Of a stretch of DNA of 64,000 nt, positions 7,532 to 47,071 are shown piece by piece. A model generated the notes under the pieces. That model saw only the letters and a program-made list of their open reading frames with translations, had not been told where the DNA came from and did not search any database. The position numbers were made by a program, and so were the translations under genes. The DNA is from an uncultured Candidatus Saccharibacteria bacterium (GTDB lineage Bacteria; Patescibacteriota; Saccharimonadia; Saccharimonadales; JALRHH01). Each line of letters starts with the position of its first letter. The first letter of the stretch is position 1. The stretch is from positions 119,769 through 183,768 of the forward strand of contig CAZLJP010000003.1 in assembly GCA_964559915.1 (NCBI GenBank), written 5' to 3'.

Positions 7532-7550
7532 ATAGCACTTAACAAAAACA

Positions 7551-7650
7551 AGCTGGAAGACGGGTGTAATACCCGAACTGTGCCGCAACGGTGAAAGTCC
7601 GATACAGCGTAAACCTCTCGAGCAAGAGTGAGCATACCTTTGTATAAAGG
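7551..7650 (+). promoter_or_regulatory. riboswitch-like structured 5' leader (class unassigned)
   Basis: Compact junction: P1 GCTG (7552-7555) / CAGC (7605-7608), hairpin CGGGT-GTAAT-ACCCG, hairpin CCG-CAA-CGG, and single-stranded GGTGAAAGTCCGATA. Followed directly by an intrinsic terminator and then the ATG of the 7688 gene. Confidence 0.4.
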
Positions 7651-35870: not shown

Positions 35871-35894
35871 AGACCGACAAAATCGGTCTTTTTT
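35871..35894 (+). terminator. intrinsic terminator after sodC
   Basis: AGACCGA-CAAAA-TCGGTCT followed by TTTTT. Confidence 0.75.
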
Positions 35895-35918
35895 GGTGGG
35901 GGTGGAAGGACTTGAACC
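35894..35918 (-). repeat. 25-nt exact duplicate of the 3' end of the tRNA at 36064-36139
   Basis: TGGTGGGGGTGGAAGGACTTGAACC is identical at 35894-35918 and 36064-36088. Adjacent hairpin GAAACG-N7-CGTTTC at 35922-35940. Confidence 0.85.
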
Positions 35919-36063: not shown

Positions 36064-36139
36064 TGGTGGGGGTGGAAGGACTTGAACCTTCGACCAAAGG
36101 ATTATGAGTCCTCTGCTCTAACCACTGAGCTACACCCCC
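36064..36139 (-). tRNA. tRNA, anticodon CAT, elongator type (Met or lysidine-dependent Ile2)
   Basis: Reverse complement GGGGGTGTAGCTCAGTGGTTAGAGCAGAGGACTCATAATCCTTTGGTCGAAGGTTCAAGTCCTTCCACCCCCACCA folds as a 76-nt cloverleaf (7/4/5/5-bp stems) with an encoded CCA. Confidence 0.92.
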
Positions 36140-36329
36140 TCGTCGAAGTGTGATTCTGCGTTGCCGCAAGCTGCCGACAAAACAAGTTTGCTCGGCAACT
36201 GTGGGCAACCCAGAAAGCCTTCTCCTCTCAAAACTGTAAACAGCAGCAAGCTGCTTGGTTTCCAGTTTTGGCATGAACTGCAAGGTAACAGATGTGAGTA
36301 TACCATTTCGTGTATACTTATCTCTAGTC

Positions 36330-36863: not shown

Positions 36864-36938
36864 CGCGGGGTAGAGCAGTGGCAGCTCGTGTGGCTCATAA
36901 CCACAAGGTCCCAGGTTCGAGTCCTGGCCCCGCTACCA
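36864..36938 (+). tRNA. initiator tRNA-fMet (anticodon CAT)
   Basis: CGCGGGGTAGAGCAGTGGCAGCTCGTGTGGCTCATAACCACAAGGTCCCAGGTTCGAGTCCTGGCCCCGCTACCA is a 75-nt cloverleaf. It has an unpaired 1:72 position (C/T) and an A11:T24 pair as in bacterial initiators, and is close to the E. coli tRNA-fMet sequence as recalled. Encoded CCA. Confidence 0.85.
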
Positions 36939-37074
36939 AGAAAAGAGTCCCAACACAGTTGGGGCTTTTTTCTTGGTACTGAGACAAGATTCGAGCCAAA
37001 AAGGTTCGGTCTTCAGTCACAGGCCCCAGCGCAGCGGGCGCCTGGATTGAAGTGCGCTGTCCTGGCCCCGCTAC
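36913..37074 (+). repeat. left direct repeat unit: tRNA-fMet 3' end, terminator hairpin, spacer, second copy of the tRNA 3' end
   Basis: TCCTGGCCCCGCTAC occurs at 36922-36936 and again at 37060-37074. Blocks CGCTACCAAGAAAA, hairpin + T-run, GAGCC, AAGGTTCGGTC, GTGCGCT and CCTGGCCCCGCTAC recur in the same order at 40875-41060. Confidence 0.8.
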
Positions 37075-37273: not shown

Positions 37274-37882
37274 CTAACCCTTTACGTACTGGAGCTGTCT
37301 GCGGACACCAGACACATTAACGCGATAGTTATACAAACTTTTGCTGACACAGAAGCGTTCCAGCGAATCCTCAAGAGCTTCATTGCGATAGGCCGTGTTC
37401 AACAGGGCTGTTCTCGGCAAAAGTAAGCAGCCCGCAAACCAGTTAGCTTCATTCTCTTGGATTTGATCAAAATCCCTCAGGGCGTATGCTTCATACACAT
37501 AAACCTTTGCTGGTTCGTGTCCACGAATAATATGGGCGAGTTCATGCATTACATTACTAGCTTGGCGAGCCTGCGAATGCCGTGGATTCACAACGATTAT
37601 TTGCTTATCAGCGGTATGTACGGTTACCGCTGACCATTCATCCCCGGCTGGTGATGACAGATAAGCGTAGGTGTCTGTGGCTAGGCCGGACACTTGATCT
37701 AGCTCCAGAATTGTGACGCCCATATTCTTAGCAAGCTCTGTTGGGGGAAGTGGGCTTGAAGGATCTAGATCCATGCGTTTTCGAATACTTATCGCCGTAT
37801 TCTCGCACCAAGTCTTGAAGCCACGCTCAAAACGTTTCTCCTCAGTCTTTGAGATAGCTAATGAGTTGGTCTCACTAGCCAC
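37274..37882 (-). CDS. ImmA/IrrE-family (M78) metallopeptidase
   Basis: HEXXH motif in NVMHELAHIIRGHE with downstream ENEANWFAGCLLLP. GTG start lies 1 nt after the stop of the upstream XRE gene. Confidence 0.85.
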   Translation of the reverse strand: MASETNSLAISKTEEKRFERGFKTWCENTAISIRKRMDLDPSSPLPPTELAKNMGVTILELDQVSGLATDTYAYLSSPAGDEWSAVTVHTADKQIIVVNPRHSQARQASNVMHELAHIIRGHEPAKVYVYEAYALRDFDQIQENEANWFAGCLLLPRTALLNTAYRNEALEDSLERFCVSKSLYNYRVNVSGVRRQLQYVKG

Positions 37883-37883
37883 G

Positions 37884-38213
37884 TTAAAATCCTTGTTCGG
37901 CTGCCTTTTGAACGGTAATAATTAGCTTCGCTAAATGATTGGCCGTATCAGGACTCATCGCCTTATGTGCTCTAAAGTGTGCGTGAACGGGGGCTGCCAT
38001 ATCGGGTAATACGCCGCTGGGAGTATTGATGCCAAGCAGCGTACTCGGGTCAACGTTCAGCCATCTACAAATAGCCCGGAAAGTATCCAGGTCAGGTTGT
38101 TTGCCATTCTCTACACGGGACAGTGTCGCAGGACTAATACCGATGTCTTCGGCTACCTTGCGAATACCTTGCCCACCTCGCTTCTGCTTAATCTTGAGAC
38201 TAAGTTCGTCCAT
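37884..38213 (-). CDS. XRE-family helix-turn-helix transcriptional regulator
   Basis: IRKVAEDIGISPATLSRVENGKQPDLDTFRAICRWLNV is a classic HTH_3 (Cro/C1) domain. 109 aa. Confidence 0.88.
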   Translation of the reverse strand: MDELSLKIKQKRGGQGIRKVAEDIGISPATLSRVENGKQPDLDTFRAICRWLNVDPSTLLGINTPSGVLPDMAAPVHAHFRAHKAMSPDTANHLAKLIITVQKAAEQGF

Positions 38214-38370
38214 ATTTACCTCTGTTCCATTATACTATACATGTTCAACTCTTGCAACGCTGTTTCATATGTGAGACACTAGTTCTAAGACTTTCACTCG
38301 ACAGGTTAGAGAGACCAGCCAGATAAAAAGTCAAAAATCACCAACTAGCCTGTCAGGAGGAACAAGTAAC

Positions 38371-38655
38371 ATGGCAGTACGTATCATCGCAATTAGAAAA
38401 CCTGGGGACAATTACAACGCCTACGAAGCGATCAGTCATTACAAGTGGCTAAACGAGGGCACCGGCAAATCGGCAATTGCCGATCGTCCTACCATGGTTG
38501 ACTGGGTCGAGAATAAGAACGGACGAGCTTACGTTAGTAGCCAAGAGGGCACCGTCGACTGTTTCGTTAACACAAGCGCTAGGGGCACCAAGTTTCTTCA
38601 GACAAATGCTGATAGCCGTTCTTCGAATAACTTGTTAAATCTTCCGGGGTGTTGA
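38371..38655 (+). CDS. DUF3892-like small protein
   Basis: 94 aa. ISHYKW...TMVDWVENKNGRAYV...KFLQTNADSRSSNNLLNLPGC resembles the DUF3892 consensus (C-terminal NNLLxLPxC). SD AGGAGG before the ATG. Confidence 0.6.
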   Translation: MAVRIIAIRKPGDNYNAYEAISHYKWLNEGTGKSAIADRPTMVDWVENKNGRAYVSSQEGTVDCFVNTSARGTKFLQTNADSRSSNNLLNLPGC

Positions 38656-38657
38656 CT

Positions 38658-39398
38658 ATGGGCGATTCGATTCAGAACCCTCGCACTGTATTCCAGCAGC
38701 TTCAGGAGAGCATGTTGGCCGAACTTGAAATGACCAAGGCGACCGTGAATCACGCCCCCACCCAAGGCGCTGCGACTGAAGATAATTGGCTCAAACTGTT
38801 CCAGGACTATCTTCCTAGCCGGTACCGAGCCGAGAGAGGTCAGGTAATGGACTCTAGGGGTGGAATGAGTGACCAAATCGATGTGATTATATTCGATCGA
38901 CACTTCACTCCGTTCTTATTCAACTACAAAGGTGTATATTTTGTTCCAGCAGAGAGTGTCTACGCCGTAATTGAGGTAAAGCCCACGCTTAACAAGAGCT
39001 ACATACAATACGCTGGCGAGAAGGCGGCCTCAGTACGAAGGCTCCACAGGACCAGCGTGCCGATACCGCACGCTGGCGGAGTTTATCCACCAAAGGTACT
39101 ATTCCCGATATTGGGTGGTGTCGTCGCACGATCTGCCGAATGGACTACGGGTCTCGGTGGTGCTTTTAAAAAGGCCATCGTCACGAAAGACCCCAATATG
39201 ATGATTGATTTTGGCTGCGCTCTTAATGCTGGATCTTTCAAGGTTGATTACTCAGGTATCCAGCCAGCTATCACTATCAGTGACCAGAATGTACTGCTGG
39301 CCTTCATCATGGGCTTATTGGACAAGTTGCAATCCTTGGCTAGCGTGCCGGCGCTGGATTACAAGGCATACGGAGAACAGGGAGCTGCAAATGTCTGA
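38658..39398 (+). CDS. PD-(D/E)xK-like putative nuclease (DUF6602-like)
   Basis: GGMSDQIDVIIFD followed 23 aa later by SVYAVIEVKPTL gives a D...E-x-K arrangement typical of the restriction-endonuclease fold. The track ORF starts at GTG 38649, overlapping the upstream stop. ATG 38658 is the alternative. Confidence 0.55.
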   Translation: MGDSIQNPRTVFQQLQESMLAELEMTKATVNHAPTQGAATEDNWLKLFQDYLPSRYRAERGQVMDSRGGMSDQIDVIIFDRHFTPFLFNYKGVYFVPAESVYAVIEVKPTLNKSYIQYAGEKAASVRRLHRTSVPIPHAGGVYPPKVLFPILGGVVARSAEWTTGLGGAFKKAIVTKDPNMMIDFGCALNAGSFKVDYSGIQPAITISDQNVLLAFIMGLLDKLQSLASVPALDYKAYGEQGAANV

Positions 39399-40776
39399 AG
39401 TTAAAAGCTTATTCAAGGAATACCTGAGTGCCATTGAGCCAGACACAAAAGCAAAAAATATTGCTGCAAAGAGCCATGTTCAACCCAGAGAGTATCTTGA
39501 GAATGACGAGGTAATCGGTGACACAGTCGAGGATTCATTCTTGTACGGTTCTTACCGACGACACACCGCTATACACGATATTAAGGATGTTGATATCGTT
39601 ATGATCTCGAGTTTTGACCCAGATACAGATACTCCTAACACTGTGCTGAACAAATTGCATGCAGCTTTAAAGCGATGTTATGGAGACACCAACGTTCTTG
39701 AACTCAACCGCCGATCTGTTTGTGTCACGAACCCGCTGCCGGATGAAGAGACTGACCTAACGCTCGACATACTGCCTGCAGTTGAAGTTAACGATGGAAG
39801 TGGATATCTGCTAGTTCCAGACCGTGATCAAAAAGATTGGATACTCACTAACCCACGCGGTCACATAGAAGCGATTACAACGGCTAATAAGAAGCTGGAT
39901 AAAACGCTGGTACCGATGATAAAAATCATGAAGGCTTGGTGGCATCACCAGTCGTCACTTATTACCGGTGATTCAACTCAGAAGCTCCGGCCTAAAGGAT
40001 TCTGGATAGAAACACTAGTTCTTACTCATTTTGATTCATCTGCAGACAATTGGGCGCAGCGCTTTATAGAACTCCTCGAGAACATAACAACATCGTACCC
40101 TAAGGGTTCTGATGTACCTGAATTGCCAGATCCGGGTATGCCTGAGTCGATTCTTCAGACCAGTATGAGCAAGTCTGAGTTTGAAGTATTCATGAATACA
40201 GCTAGAAGCTCCTTGGGACTGGCGTACTCTGCATTTAACGAGACGGACCGACACGCCAGCTCTCAAACATGGTCACAGATTTTTGGCGATCACTTCCCAA
40301 TTGAAGAGGCAAAGGAGAAGCAAAAGTTTCTTACTGGGCAACAGTACGTACTGGGCAACATTAACCACGCGGTCGACTTGAGTTTCCCTTACTCCGTGAA
40401 TGGACAAGCAAGCCTCCGTGCAGAGCTCTATCGCCGCAATTACGATAATCGCAGGCTGAAGGTAAGATTTGGCACCCTGCAGCCACACGACTCAATAACC
40501 AGTGGTTTACACATCCGATTTAAGGCATGGACTGATGTCACGCTCCCTTATCGTGTGTACTGGCGTGTGGTGAATACTGGAGCACACGCAGCACAAGACA
40601 AGGGTTTGAGAGGCAAGCCCTTTCTAGATGACTCAGGCACTGAGCTCACTAGATGGGAGCCTACAGAATACACTGGTAAGCATTGGATGGAGTGCTTCAT
40701 TGTTAAGGGTGGTGAGGTAGTAGCTGCCAGTGAACGCTTCTACATCAACATCACTAACCCTAAGTGGGCTACGTAG
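39391..40776 (+). CDS. Pol-beta-fold nucleotidyltransferase, SMODS/CD-NTase-like, with uncharacterised C-terminal domain
   Basis: SFLYGSYRRHTAIHDIKDVDIVMI (G-S ... DxD) and TLDILPAVE (third acidic residue), then NPRGHIEA...LVPMIKIMKAWW as in SMODS-type cyclases. The ~180-aa C-terminal region is beta-rich. ATG 39391 overlaps the upstream stop (ATGTCTGA). The track ORF start at 39205 lies inside the preceding gene. Confidence 0.7.
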   Translation: MSEVKSLFKEYLSAIEPDTKAKNIAAKSHVQPREYLENDEVIGDTVEDSFLYGSYRRHTAIHDIKDVDIVMISSFDPDTDTPNTVLNKLHAALKRCYGDTNVLELNRRSVCVTNPLPDEETDLTLDILPAVEVNDGSGYLLVPDRDQKDWILTNPRGHIEAITTANKKLDKTLVPMIKIMKAWWHHQSSLITGDSTQKLRPKGFWIETLVLTHFDSSADNWAQRFIELLENITTSYPKGSDVPELPDPGMPESILQTSMSKSEFEVFMNTARSSLGLAYSAFNETDRHASSQTWSQIFGDHFPIEEAKEKQKFLTGQQYVLGNINHAVDLSFPYSVNGQASLRAELYRRNYDNRRLKVRFGTLQPHDSITSGLHIRFKAWTDVTLPYRVYWRVVNTGAHAAQDKGLRGKPFLDDSGTELTRWEPTEYTGKHWMECFIVKGGEVVAASERFYINITNPKWAT

Positions 40777-44587: not shown

Positions 44588-45493
44588 CTATGCAGCATGT
44601 GCGATATGCGGTGGCTCAATACCGGCATAGTGCAGTAACAGTGGTAATTGTCTCTCGCCAGCAGTATGTTCGCCGGGTTGTCGCAGTGTATCTTCAATTG
44701 CAAAAAACTTATGAGCCGGTGTAATAGCCTGGTAACGCGGCAGGGCACAGTTGGTGTTTACCACGTGGTCAGATGGGCCGTGCACATAATACACGGCGTC
44801 CATAATATCGGGCAGGCTGCCATCAGGATGAGACTGGCCCATAAAGAGCCCCTCAGAGCGAATGGTATCCAGATGGGCACCAGCGGACATTGGCCCAGCT
44901 ACATGGCTGTAAATCTGACGTTTCAGGAAATCTAGAGTCATGCTTGAACGCACGCCTTTACTCGATGCCATAGTAAGCAAGCGTTTGTGGCTATCGTGTA
45001 CGTCCTGCAGGTCAAAAGGTGAGGCATCCAAGATAATCGGGCCAAAACCACCCAGTTTTTCGGCTACACCGGTCTGCTGGGCATAGTGCAGGAAGTGTCG
45101 CATCACAATGCCCCCCATAGACTCACATAGCAGGGCGGGTCGTTCAGCTCGGTTTTTAACAAGCTGCTTGGCTAGGCCTTCACAGACTGCCTCCACGTTA
45201 AAAGTGTGTTCTGGGTAATCGGTAGCAATGAGCTTCGTGTTGGGCGTGACCTTGGCCAGGCTCTCAAAGAATAGTCGGCCATTTGTTTGGCAGCCAGGCA
45301 GGACTCCTAGGGTGTGCCGGGCACCTTGGTTGAGGTGAGCGGTATGAAACTCGGGGGTGGTGCGGCGCGTCGCATTGCTGTGGGCGCCAAAAATCTGGTC
45401 GATAGCAAACACAGTCCCAACAGCTAAGACAGGCATAAGGCCTTTCTCGAAGTTGTTTGGTATTTGACTGTGTTTTTGTGTTGAACTAAGCAT
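44588..45493 (-). CDS. putative alpha/beta-fold hydrolase
   Basis: 301 aa with a nucleophile-elbow-like LLCESMGGIV, and later HGPSDHVV and GEHTAG as possible Asp/His. Weak call. Confidence 0.45.
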   Translation of the reverse strand: MLSSTQKHSQIPNNFEKGLMPVLAVGTVFAIDQIFGAHSNATRRTTPEFHTAHLNQGARHTLGVLPGCQTNGRLFFESLAKVTPNTKLIATDYPEHTFNVEAVCEGLAKQLVKNRAERPALLCESMGGIVMRHFLHYAQQTGVAEKLGGFGPIILDASPFDLQDVHDSHKRLLTMASSKGVRSSMTLDFLKRQIYSHVAGPMSAGAHLDTIRSEGLFMGQSHPDGSLPDIMDAVYYVHGPSDHVVNTNCALPRYQAITPAHKFFAIEDTLRQPGEHTAGERQLPLLLHYAGIEPPHIAHAA

Positions 45494-45586
45494 TGTGCTT
45501 ACGCCCTCAAACCTAGTTATACTACCAATTTAAAATATGTCAATAGTGATAAATATCACTAAATCTCTCGAGTATTTTGCTGATTC

Positions 45587-45619
45587 TGGTAGCGATGAGT
45601 GGACTTGAACCACTGACCC
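45587..45619 (-). repeat. tRNA 3'-half fragment (T-arm, acceptor strand, CCA) of a second tRNA-Met-like copy
   Basis: TGGTAGCGATGAGTGGACTTGAACCACTGACCC versus the intact tRNA 3' end TGGTAGCGGCGAGTGGGCTTGAACCACTGACCT (4 mismatches in 33). Adjacent perfect 11-bp hairpin at 45619-45643. Confidence 0.8.
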
Positions 45620-45785
45620 GTAAACGCCCTGTGGGCGTTTACGTTTTCCTTGCTTGACCGAAATTTGAACGCATTCAAATTTCGTAGGATATGACAGGCT
45701 TATATTTCATATAAACTGCAGCCATACTCGAAGTAAACTTCTGCGTGTGGCTTTGTTTATGAGCCCTGACAATTTAGAACATTTC

Positions 45786-45862
45786 TGGTAGCGGCGAGTG
45801 GGCTTGAACCACTGACCTCAGGCTTATGAGTCCTGCGCTCTAACCAGCTGAGCTACGCCGCC
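45786..45862 (-). tRNA. tRNA, anticodon CAT, elongator type (Met or Ile2)
   Basis: Reverse complement GGCGGCGTAGCTCAGCTGGTTAGAGCGCAGGACTCATAAGCCTGAGGTCAGTGGTTCAAGCCCACTCGCCGCTACCA is a 77-nt cloverleaf with an encoded CCA and one A/G mismatch at the base of the anticodon stem. Confidence 0.9.
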
Positions 45863-45884
45863 CCAGAAATAGTCTAAATTGTTA

Positions 45885-45912
45885 ATGCTCTAACCAGCTG
45901 AGCTGCATCGCC
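45885..45912 (-). repeat. tRNA 5'-half fragment (acceptor strand + D-arm) matching the 45587 fragment
   Basis: Reverse complement is GGCGATGCAGCTCAGCTGGTTAGAGCAT. Its acceptor strand GGCGATG is complementary to CATCGCT in the 3' fragment, not to the intact tRNA (GGCGGCG). Confidence 0.75.
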
Positions 45913-45965
45913 ACAAGAAAAAGCAAAATAACAGGGGTTAATATAACAGATTTTCTTGCTCCTGG

Positions 45966-46478
45966 CTAGAGCAGATGCACAATCTCCGCATTACCGAATC
46001 TAGCAGAGCCATGGAATGGCGTGCTTGGTGTTAGGATGTGACGTATAGCCCGGCCTGTTGCACCATGGCTGACCACTAAGATAGTATCACCAGGTAACGA
46101 CTCTATCCATTCTATGGCGAGGCGTGCTCGGTTAAATAATGTGTCGGTTGTTTCTATGTCTGCAATGCCGTCCATATCAAAATCTGGTCTATACGGCTGA
46201 CCCTCGAGCTGACCCATATGCCGTTCTACCAGCAGGCTACTCTGGTGAATTTTATCCAATGTATAACCAATTTCTTTCGCCACGATTTGCGCTGTTTCAA
46301 TTGCCCGACTTTGCGTAGAGCACACAATAGTATCTATATTAAGTTCCTTGGCATGCTGGCCTGCAAGCTTGGCCTGAGTCCGCCCTTCGTCTGTAAGATC
46401 AGTTTCACTTGAACCCGACCACAAACCCGCGACATTCATTTCGGTTAACCCATGACGCATAAAGTAGAGTGTTTTCAT
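45966..46478 (-). CDS. histidine phosphatase family protein (phosphoglycerate-mutase-like)
   Basis: MKTLYFMRHGLTEMN (RHG motif) and VVSHGATGRAI. The start at 46478 gives an ATGA overlap with the upstream gene. The track ORF extends to 46517. Confidence 0.8.
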   Translation of the reverse strand: MKTLYFMRHGLTEMNVAGLWSGSSETDLTDEGRTQAKLAGQHAKELNIDTIVCSTQSRAIETAQIVAKEIGYTLDKIHQSSLLVERHMGQLEGQPYRPDFDMDGIADIETTDTLFNRARLAIEWIESLPGDTILVVSHGATGRAIRHILTPSTPFHGSARFGNAEIVHLL

Positions 46479-47071
46479 GAATATTTTTCCTTGTACCATT
46501 TTACGAGCTCGTGCCATGCATCGGGACGGTTTTTATATCGTTCAGCAACCGCATCAGCACCTTGTGCAAAAACCTCGGCTATCGTTTTGCCATTATCTGA
46601 ATCAAGTGCCACTACTGTCATGCACGGTGATTTAGTATTTTCTCCCTGTTGTTTGGTAAGTATAACCCCAGGAATGTCGTTCTGAAATATTAAGATTTCA
46701 CGACCATCATAGTAGGCAAGATATTGGTGAATATACACAGATCGGTCTTCGATGCCGTTCATCAATCGTAAAAAATCCTCTGGCTTGAACCAGTAGTTTA
46801 GTGACTTCATGTATGGACCAGGGAACCCATTTAGTGCCGGAATACTCCAGGAGTCATCGCTGACAACGACTGGCTTGCCATATTGTTCGTATGCGCGTAT
46901 GGCTTTATCTTTGACAATTAATTCGGGATTCTCGCCTTGAATCTCGTCAATTTCAAGAAATAGCTGGTTGATTGTTAGCCCAGCTTTTTCGCAAACGTGC
47001 ATAGCAATGGCGAACTTTTCTTTGTTACTACTAGCGAAGGCAATTGGTGGAAGGCTCATAATTACGTACAA
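46475..47071 (-). CDS. non-canonical purine NTP pyrophosphatase-like (Ham1/RdgB family)
   Basis: IAFASSNKEKF, EIDEIQGE, VVVSDDSWSIPALNGFPGPYMK. TTG start in the track; ATG at codon 5 is an alternative. Confidence 0.7.
   Translation of the reverse strand: MYVIMSLPPIAFASSNKEKFAIAMHVCEKAGLTINQLFLEIDEIQGENPELIVKDKAIRAYEQYGKPVVVSDDSWSIPALNGFPGPYMKSLNYWFKPEDFLRLMNGIEDRSVYIHQYLAYYDGREILIFQNDIPGVILTKQQGENTKSPCMTVVALDSDNGKTIAEVFAQGADAVAERYKNRPDAWHELVKWYKEKYS

Follow-up and report, generated by a model that had tools for sequence, protein, structure and literature searches.

Split, permuted and multi-intron transfer RNA (tRNA) genes of archaea and red algae show colinear pieces, non-canonical breaks and complementary flanks, and they are cut by a splicing endonuclease at bulge-helix-bulge motifs and yield functional tRNAs (PMC3218864; PMC3728597). 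Here, we describe a locus with similar features in a bacterium. A 64,000-nucleotide (nt) stretch of DNA from an uncultured Candidatus Saccharibacteria bacterium (contig CAZLJP010000003.1; the whole stretch is called the window, and all coordinates are positions in it) carries at 45587-45912, read on the minus strand, a complete tRNA-Met gene (B) that is bracketed by a long inverted repeat and nested within the pieces of a second tRNA-Met gene (A). This locus differs from the archaeal and red-algal genes in its bacterial host, in an outer gene that looks dead and in an intervening sequence that forms a complete tRNA of its own; inspection of the junctions also revealed no bulge-helix-bulge motif. 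We consider it probable that the locus records an in-place replacement, in which a related lineage supplied a tRNA unit, bracketed by a stem but lacking a promoter, that took the place of the resident tRNA-Met A.

Two further kinds of described systems share single elements with this locus. Integrating elements likewise leave partial tRNA copies beside an intact gene of the same isotype, which would confuse automated annotation in both cases (bioRxiv 10.1101/2022.07.05.498093). Unlike these fragments, the window has the 5' half upstream and the rest downstream of the inner gene, without an integrase or an element body, and it is the pieces that represent the resident allele and the intact gene that is the newcomer. 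The inverted repeat, on the other hand, is comparable to the processing helices of 16S and 23S rRNA, which are also long leader-trailer helices conserved by compensatory changes (PMC6582327; PMC10250234) and in which RNase III cuts the long stems flanking the rRNAs (PMC6582327). The window helix differs in flanking a single tRNA, stacking on its acceptor stem and taking in the CCA end; it belongs to a type limited to a subset of Saccharibacteria tRNA-Met loci, and its cleavage by RNase III would follow the rRNA case by analogy. Short leader pairing with the 3' RCCA similarly extends the acceptor stem of bacterial precursor tRNAs (pre-tRNAs), and pairing at leader positions -1/-2 is an anti-determinant for bacterial RNase P (PMC9433436). 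Known cases comprise 2-4 pairs that RNase P unwinds alone, whereas the 19 pairs of the window would need a prior cut or a helicase. Our literature searches turned up neither a bacterial tRNA nested within another nor any report of tRNA introns in Saccharibacteria. While the single elements are familiar, the combination of a complete tRNA with a long stem inside the halves of a same-isotype resident gene, recurrent within a clade, looks new.

The intact CAT tRNA that a first-pass annotation of the window had placed at 45862-45786 was confirmed by both ARAGORN and Rfam. The outer 5' half, an anticodon-arm remnant and the 3' half were also found at the positions noted there, with recomputed boundaries of 45912-45886, 45768-45757 and 45619-45587. 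In the direction of reading, the locus consists of the following features:

45940-45968, minus strand: native promoter of the tRNA-Met locus from a promoter scan, with -35 TAGCCA, a spacer of 17 nt and the extended -10 TGTTATATT
45913-45937, minus strand: native leader CCCCTGTTATTTTGCTTTTTCTTGT, the same sequence as the leader of L010 and a partial complement of the native trailer
45886-45912, minus strand: positions 1-26 of resident tRNA-Met A, GGCGATGCAGCTCAGCTGGTTAGAGCA, with the acceptor 5' strand GGCGATG, the D arm and C at position 8 (nhmmer E=8e-5)
45883-45885, minus strand: TTA, unpaired, the left insert junction, which separates A position 26 from the stem (read from the sequence)
45863-45882, minus strand: 5' strand of the leader-trailer stem, ACAATTTAGACTATTTCTGG, an in-register homologue of the native leader of L100
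45786-45862, minus strand: intact elongator-type tRNA-Met(CAT) B with encoded CCA (ARAGORN; Rfam 65 bits)
45769-45788, minus strand: 3' strand of the leader-trailer stem, CCAGAAATGTTCTAAATTGT, which opens with the CCA end of B
45757-45768, minus strand: A positions 27-38, CAGGGCTCATAA (CAGGG CTCATAA), the 5' strand of the anticodon stem plus loop, abutting the stem end directly
45700-45756, minus strand: filler I2, 57 nt, bounded by the 4-nt direct repeat ATAA and containing the hairpin GAAGT-TTA-CTTC
45695-45699, minus strand: GCCTG, tentatively A positions 39-43 (3' strand of the anticodon stem); with the ATAA before it, it forms the 9-mer ATAAGCCTG, equal to tRNA positions 35-43
45620-45694, minus strand: filler I3, 75 nt, with two perfect hairpins (45659-45684 and 45620-45642)
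45587-45619, minus strand: A positions 44-76, GGGTCAGTGGTTCAAGTCCACTCATCGCTACCA, with the variable loop, an intact T arm, the acceptor strand CATCGCT and ACCA (nhmmer E=3e-7)
45572-45586, minus strand: native trailer GAATCAGCAAAATAC, a homologue of the trailer of L135

The insert between A positions 26 and 27 thus measures 120 nt: TTA and a stem strand of 20 nt lie before B, and the complementary stem strand lies after it. A hairpin-rich region of filler (~135 nt) separates A positions 27-38 from positions 44-76. Within it, ATAAGCCTG at 45703-45695 adds a fourth piece of A to the three known before and completes the anticodon stem, whose 3' strand had been lacking; any tRNA 9-mer is expected within 137 nt with a chance of ~0.03, and the assignment is therefore tentative. 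The nested layout is not an assembly artefact, as the junction regions on both sides were reproduced in independent Logan assemblies of other samples: L001 and L002 contain the A 5' half, the stem and the start of B, and L007 contains the end of B, the stem, the filler and the A 3' part.

Loci of relatives (labels L001 and following) were retrieved via both neighbouring proteins of the locus and from a metagenome collection, and they allowed us to trace the history of A. Searched with nhmmer against a Saccharibacteria tRNA-Met profile, the 5' half covers profile positions 1-27 (E=8e-5) and the 3' part positions 45-77 (E=3e-7), and the outer pieces pair with each other as an acceptor stem of G1·U72 followed by six Watson-Crick pairs. 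A comparison of A with B shows 9 differences in 77 positions, among them C8 in A and two acceptor pairs (5:68 and 6:67) that are changed on both sides. The outer halves are ~290 nt apart, yet compensated at these two pairs, which implies that they once formed one functional gene. In agreement with this, the native promoter and leader stand at one edge of A and the native trailer at the other, and the closest relative found, L008 (86 % identity in the neighbouring histidine-phosphatase, HisPhos), has a tRNA of the GGCGATG type, GGCGATGTAGCTCAGCTGGTTAGAGCACAG, with T at position 8, which is uninterrupted over the 30 nt that its contig covers. The first-pass claim that the two halves derive from one separate tRNA copy is thus borne out, and it can be refined: the disrupted copy A is the resident gene, and the intact B appears as the newcomer.

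The surroundings of A are shared more widely. The promoter motif ATCTGTTATATTA(A/G)CCCCTG was found ahead of tRNA-Met in L008, L010, L100, L131, L133 and L136, the last of which has a plain tRNA followed by a terminator. In all loci retrieved via the neighbouring proteins, this motif stands ahead of a single tRNA-Met. In L010 and L135, which come from one sample (neighbours 75 % and 82 % identical), the B allele has around it the very leader and trailer that A has in the window. The acceptor strand CATCGCT of A was absent from all 123 matches listed in a metagenome scan for the tRNA-Met 3' end.

Several features indicate decay of A. Position 8 of tRNAs is almost always U; A has C there, where L008 has T, and the fillers I2 and I3 break the anticodon arm. 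The four pieces of A, when joined, were called as tRNA-Met by ARAGORN, with C8 present and the tentative GCCTG included, but no call was obtained without GCCTG, and with introns allowed the program did not find the outer gene. Judged by its sequence, A would be a decaying and non-functional relic. In annotation, the outer halves should be treated as fragments of a pseudogene and left out of the count of tRNA genes.

B, in contrast to A, is intact. ARAGORN called it as tRNA-Met(CAT) at 45786-45862 on the minus strand, and its score of 65 bits against the Rfam family RF00005 lies well above the gathering score of 29. All 77 nt are identical to the tRNA-Met of 11 other Saccharibacteria metagenomic loci, and the B sequence is also present at the visible ends of L010 and L135 at the orthologous site; from these matches, B is an allele common elsewhere in Saccharibacteria. 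The sequence is consistent with an elongator tRNA-Met, which fits the presence of separate initiator-like and Ile2-like CAT tRNAs in the window. A promoter scan of the 23 nt between the A 5' half and B detected no promoter, nor is there room for one; B would therefore be transcribed from the promoter of A. As a side observation, the elongator tRNA-Met of Saccharibacteria (B and its homologues) keeps two non-Watson-Crick features, namely a G1·U72 wobble that tops the acceptor stem and, at the base of the anticodon stem, the mismatch A31·G39.

The inverted repeat around B (45770-45788 and 45863-45881) is complementary at 17 of 19 positions. Only 0.04 such matches are expected per window by chance, and two matches did not occur in any of 100 shuffles. 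The repeat can be extended by one pair to 20 positions, which comprise 18 Watson-Crick pairs, one U·G pair and one mismatch when read as RNA. The duplex energy of this stem is -29.1 kcal/mol (z=-9.8), and folding of 45886-45766 stacked the stem onto the acceptor stem with A73 bulged out (-51.1 kcal/mol, z=-5.8). Within the stem, the GGU that makes up leader positions -1 to -3 is paired to the CCA end of B (C74, C75 and A76).

To compare leader-trailer pairing across loci, we calculated RNA duplex energies together with shuffled controls. Significant pairing that includes the CCA end was obtained for L133/L134 (-26.6 kcal/mol), L131 (-20.4 kcal/mol), L100 (-17.8 kcal/mol), L010/L135 (-16.4 kcal/mol) and L120 (-13.6 kcal/mol), and pairing of the native flanks of A was weakly significant (p=0.03, -12.6 kcal/mol), whereas nothing was seen in ~50 further tRNA-Met loci of Saccharibacteria. 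An initial impression that the stem is unique to the window, based on a scan with a strict mismatch penalty, was overturned by these energies, as the stem recurs in relatives.

The most informative relative is L100, an un-nested native locus that shares its promoter with the window and whose tRNA is identical to B. The B stem and the L100 helix lie in the same register and show double compensatory changes at positions 4, 8 and 14, while position 9 is a U·G pair and position 10 a mismatch in both. The leaders of B and L100 align position-locked to the tRNA 5' end. Compared with the L133 stem, 10 positions of the B stem are altered on both sides. Each of the homologous helices contains one sense-strand U·G pair. 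Hence, the first-pass reading of the repeat as a leader-trailer helix that extends the acceptor stem holds: CCA-including homologues flank tRNA-Met in L100, L131, L010/L135 and L133, and their changes are compensated. The simple decay of a tandem duplication without a conserved repeat was not what the comparison across relatives revealed. From the pattern of substitutions, the repeat is best described as a conserved precursor RNA helix that would have travelled with B.

The nested arrangement itself also recurs. In L133/L134, behind the common promoter, a leader segment, CAATTTAGATATT, resembles a B stem strand (p~0.009) and is followed by a degenerate outer tRNA-Met 5' half that ends at about position 28 (p=0.0015). 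In the core, six unpaired bases separate one strand of a 20-bp stem from an intact tRNA-Met, which is followed by the opposite stem strand; behind this core lie a degenerate outer 3' part and a trailer that is homologous to the L131 trailer (p=0.0005). By sequence comparison, this is the same architecture as in the window, apparently older, with another stem and another tRNA allele and with an insertion site within 1-2 nt of that in the window. Simpler partial copies exist as well. L131, whose tRNA is identical to that of L133, has an intact gene and trailer followed by a partial copy with positions 38-65, a 98-nt insert, positions 68-76 and a second trailer. In L048, a 5' fragment of positions 1-30 (p<0.0005) lies 91 nt upstream of the intact gene, downstream of which the tRNA end plus trailer recurs as a duplicate of 11 nt. 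Altogether, same-strand fragments within 450 nt were found at ~6 of 60 Saccharibacteria tRNA-Met loci.

An in-place replacement would account for these observations as follows. A promoterless unit of 120 nt would have entered A between positions 26 and 27, which is the junction of D arm and anticodon stem. Its source was most likely a related, L100-like Saccharibacteria lineage that has the same tRNA in a homologous native-locus helix, and its arrival would then have been horizontal. The insertion may have been neutral, because the unit gives the same function from the same promoter. B would now be the working gene within a long precursor that starts at the A promoter, and in this precursor the 20 stem positions (19 of them paired), the bulged A73 and the 7-bp acceptor stem are predicted to form a quasi-continuous helix. 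Such a helix could isolate the folding of B from the near-identical outer halves, which could otherwise compete. As it also hides the CCA end and the leader positions -1 to -3, a cut or an opening would be needed before RNase P can act; a double-strand cut of the RNase III type, followed by trimming, is the most likely route. A would have decayed afterwards, by the change of U8 to C and by the uptake of two fillers into its anticodon arm, one of which carries a terminator-like hairpin in the wrong direction.

A number of points weigh against this reconstruction. The stem folds equally well on both strands, so that the energy fails to discriminate the strand, and the similarity of the B flanks to L100 is modest by shuffling (leader p=0.015, trailer p=0.11). 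That B is expressed, the stem cleaved and A silent is deduced from sequence. The tRNA of L008 is readable for 30 nt only, up to the contig end, and L010 and L135 are two contigs whose junction through a simple tRNA is assumed. Moreover, our view of the genome comprises 64 kb, and a further tRNA-Met copy or a source of B within the same genome is possible. Finally, both nested inserts end 0-3 nt from the stem ends, at nearly the same tRNA position; coinciding ends and sites are not predicted by a random illegitimate insertion of foreign DNA, which leaves a cassette bounded by a hairpin as the main rival.

According to this rival, which we regard as unlikely, the hairpin-bounded tRNA-Met cassette is a site-specific mobile unit that hits the junction of D arm and anticodon stem. 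It would destroy the resident gene, put itself under the promoter of that gene and spread through the Saccharibacteria, for instance when DNA is taken up. The window and L133/L134 are two apparently independent nested cases with different stems that both have 20 positions, their insertion points are 1-2 nt apart (26/27 versus ~27/28), and the spacing of 0-3 nt applies to four of four junctions. In addition, the dead outer gene of L133 has the leader type of the inner gene in the window, which suggests serial replacement. However, a Pfam search of 19 neighbouring open reading frames (ORFs) revealed no recombinase or transposase nearby, no target-site duplication is present, the repeat is single-copy in the window, and, unlike transposons, the two stems have unrelated outer ends. 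The same helix is also found in the un-nested native loci L100, L131 and L010/L135, and the clear cases number only two, with the insert in L048 being without a stem. Even smaller is the chance we give to the full form of this idea, a self-replacing cassette that inserts at positions 26-28, moves between lineages, leaves layered relics (at least two layers in L133) and has as its sole cargo the very tRNA it replaces.

Local duplications within the lineage, one of the leader with positions 1-26 and one of positions 27-76 with the trailer, followed by decay of the outer copies, would require no foreign DNA. L131 and L048 do each resemble the outcome of a single tandem duplication in which one breakpoint fell within the tRNA, and the B flanks are distantly like the native flanks of A. 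But two unlinked dead relics would not gain the two compensated acceptor pairs that separate A from B, the GGCGATG allele is a working gene in L008, and the B stem is nearer to the L100 stem than to the flanks of A. These arguments make a purely local origin quite improbable.

We see still less reason to take the fragments for attachment-site relics of an integrase-mediated gain and loss of mobile elements, which we hold to be very unlikely. Integrating elements are known to leave fragments beside intact tRNA genes (bioRxiv 10.1101/2022.07.05.498093), a short 3'-end duplicate lies 100-170 nt downstream of each of the other two CAT tRNAs in the window, and defence-type genes lie between the tRNAs. 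Integrases, however, duplicate the 3' part of a tRNA and leave the 5' part continuous, whereas here a complete gene follows a displaced 5' half; the ORFs scanned over 30-50 kb included no integrase, and the pieces are only ~135 nt apart. An origin from a phage was considered separately and is ruled against by scans of viral contigs, in which neither the A 3' end nor the stem-B junction nor full-length tRNA-Met (B and the majority types) had a match.

That A is still functional, with B cut out like an intron by tRNA-processing enzymes and the pieces kept in place by the 20-bp stem or ligated, on the model of split and multi-intron tRNAs in archaea, is hardly credible. It is true that the four pieces are colinear and give a tRNA-Met when joined, that the insertions lie at the helix boundaries 26/27, 38/39 and 43/44, and that the region folds as nested helices closed by the A acceptor stem (minimum free energy -135 kcal/mol, z=-8.3). 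Against this stand the bacterial host and the junctions themselves, since GAGCA/TTAACAAT and AAATTGT/CAGGG lie at the end of a continuous 20-bp helix without paired 3-nt bulges. Furthermore, the anticodon loop and stem are broken twice more by filler with a reverse-oriented terminator, A has C8, and the outer halves of L133 are degenerate.

A group I intron is dismissed, as the inserts of 120, 57 and 75 nt compare with ~200 nt or more for such introns and a search of the region for group I introns, ribozymes and other Rfam families (gathering thresholds and E<=10) matched only tRNA. The end of a transposon or of a miniature inverted-repeat transposable element is rejected as well, because there is no target-site duplication, no second copy in the window (<=3 mismatches) and no resemblance of the distal ends to those of L133, although pairing is kept.

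The origin of the filler was searched by BLAST against all fetched loci and the window, which yielded nothing above 13-mers and no significant similarity. The hairpin beside the A 3' part (45619-45652, plus strand) resembles an intrinsic terminator on the plus strand, with an 11-bp stem followed by GTTTTCCTTGC, and no plus-strand gene lies upstream of it. It may stem from captured DNA or mark the terminus of an antisense transcript.

The nested locus lies between the HisPhos gene (45966-46517, minus strand) and a gene for a 301-aa protein (44588-45493, minus strand) without a Pfam match; TilS, a Ham1-family gene and FtsH are found just past these immediate neighbours. A query of the metagenome collection with the 301-aa neighbour yielded no syntenic loci.

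According to ARAGORN, the window contains three tRNAs with a CAT anticodon, and partial copies were observed near all three of them. The 3' end of the Ile2-like tRNA (36064-36139, minus strand) is repeated exactly over 25 nt, GGTTCAAGTCCTTCCACCCCCACCA, ~145 nt further on at 35894-35918 (minus strand), with a hairpin directly before and a clear intrinsic terminator directly after this duplicate. The initiator-like tRNA-Met (36864-36938, plus strand) has its own terminator and, ~120 nt further, a 15-nt duplicate of its 3' end, TCCTGGCCCCGCTAC, at 37060-37074, which is preceded by a degenerate stretch resembling a T arm. Between the tRNA loci, at 37274-40776, lie defence-island-like genes, namely Peptidase_M78 (IrrE/ImmA-like), DUF6602 and a SMODS plus AGS-C nucleotidyltransferase (a CBASS-type cyclase). 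Elsewhere in the window, an AdoCbl-II (cobalamin) riboswitch aptamer at 7538-7614 (plus strand) scored 37.9 bits, barely over the Rfam gathering score of 36.5.

Three of the relatives have in common an element of ~150-170 nt downstream of tRNA-Met and its terminator (L068: 2300-2452; L053: 794-946; L078: 1216-1372, minus strand). It ends in a perfect copy of the last 16-19 nt of the tRNA, and the copy in L078 mirrors the C68-to-T change of its own tRNA. The element contains compensated hairpins, and a closing helix joins its 5' end to the GCTACCA 3' end. It could be an old relic of an outer gene that was homogenised by gene conversion, or a small RNA of a new type; an nhmmer comparison with the filler of the window gave no significant link, despite a locally similar hairpin. 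Another conserved sequence is a leader of ~100 nt that stands ahead of different tRNAs, namely the Ile2-like tRNA of the window (~36140-36260, minus strand) and tRNA-Met in L053 (620-680), L078 and L048. Its parts are GAGAGGAGAAG, a TTTTGCC...GGCAAAA hairpin and CTTCGACGA, which touches the tRNA 5' end.

The turnover of bacterial tRNA genes is usually inferred from phylogenies. Here, both genes of a probable replacement can still be read: the resident keeps its compensated acceptor stem, its promoter and its trailer, and the newcomer would use that promoter. Saccharibacteria reportedly depend on the uptake of external nucleotides, and the layered relics in the relatives suggest that single-copy essential tRNA genes in their tiny genomes have been overwritten repeatedly. 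A helix of ~19 pairs that would lock the CCA end of a bacterial pre-tRNA is unusual, and it predicts an RNase III-dependent tRNA maturation in Saccharibacteria.

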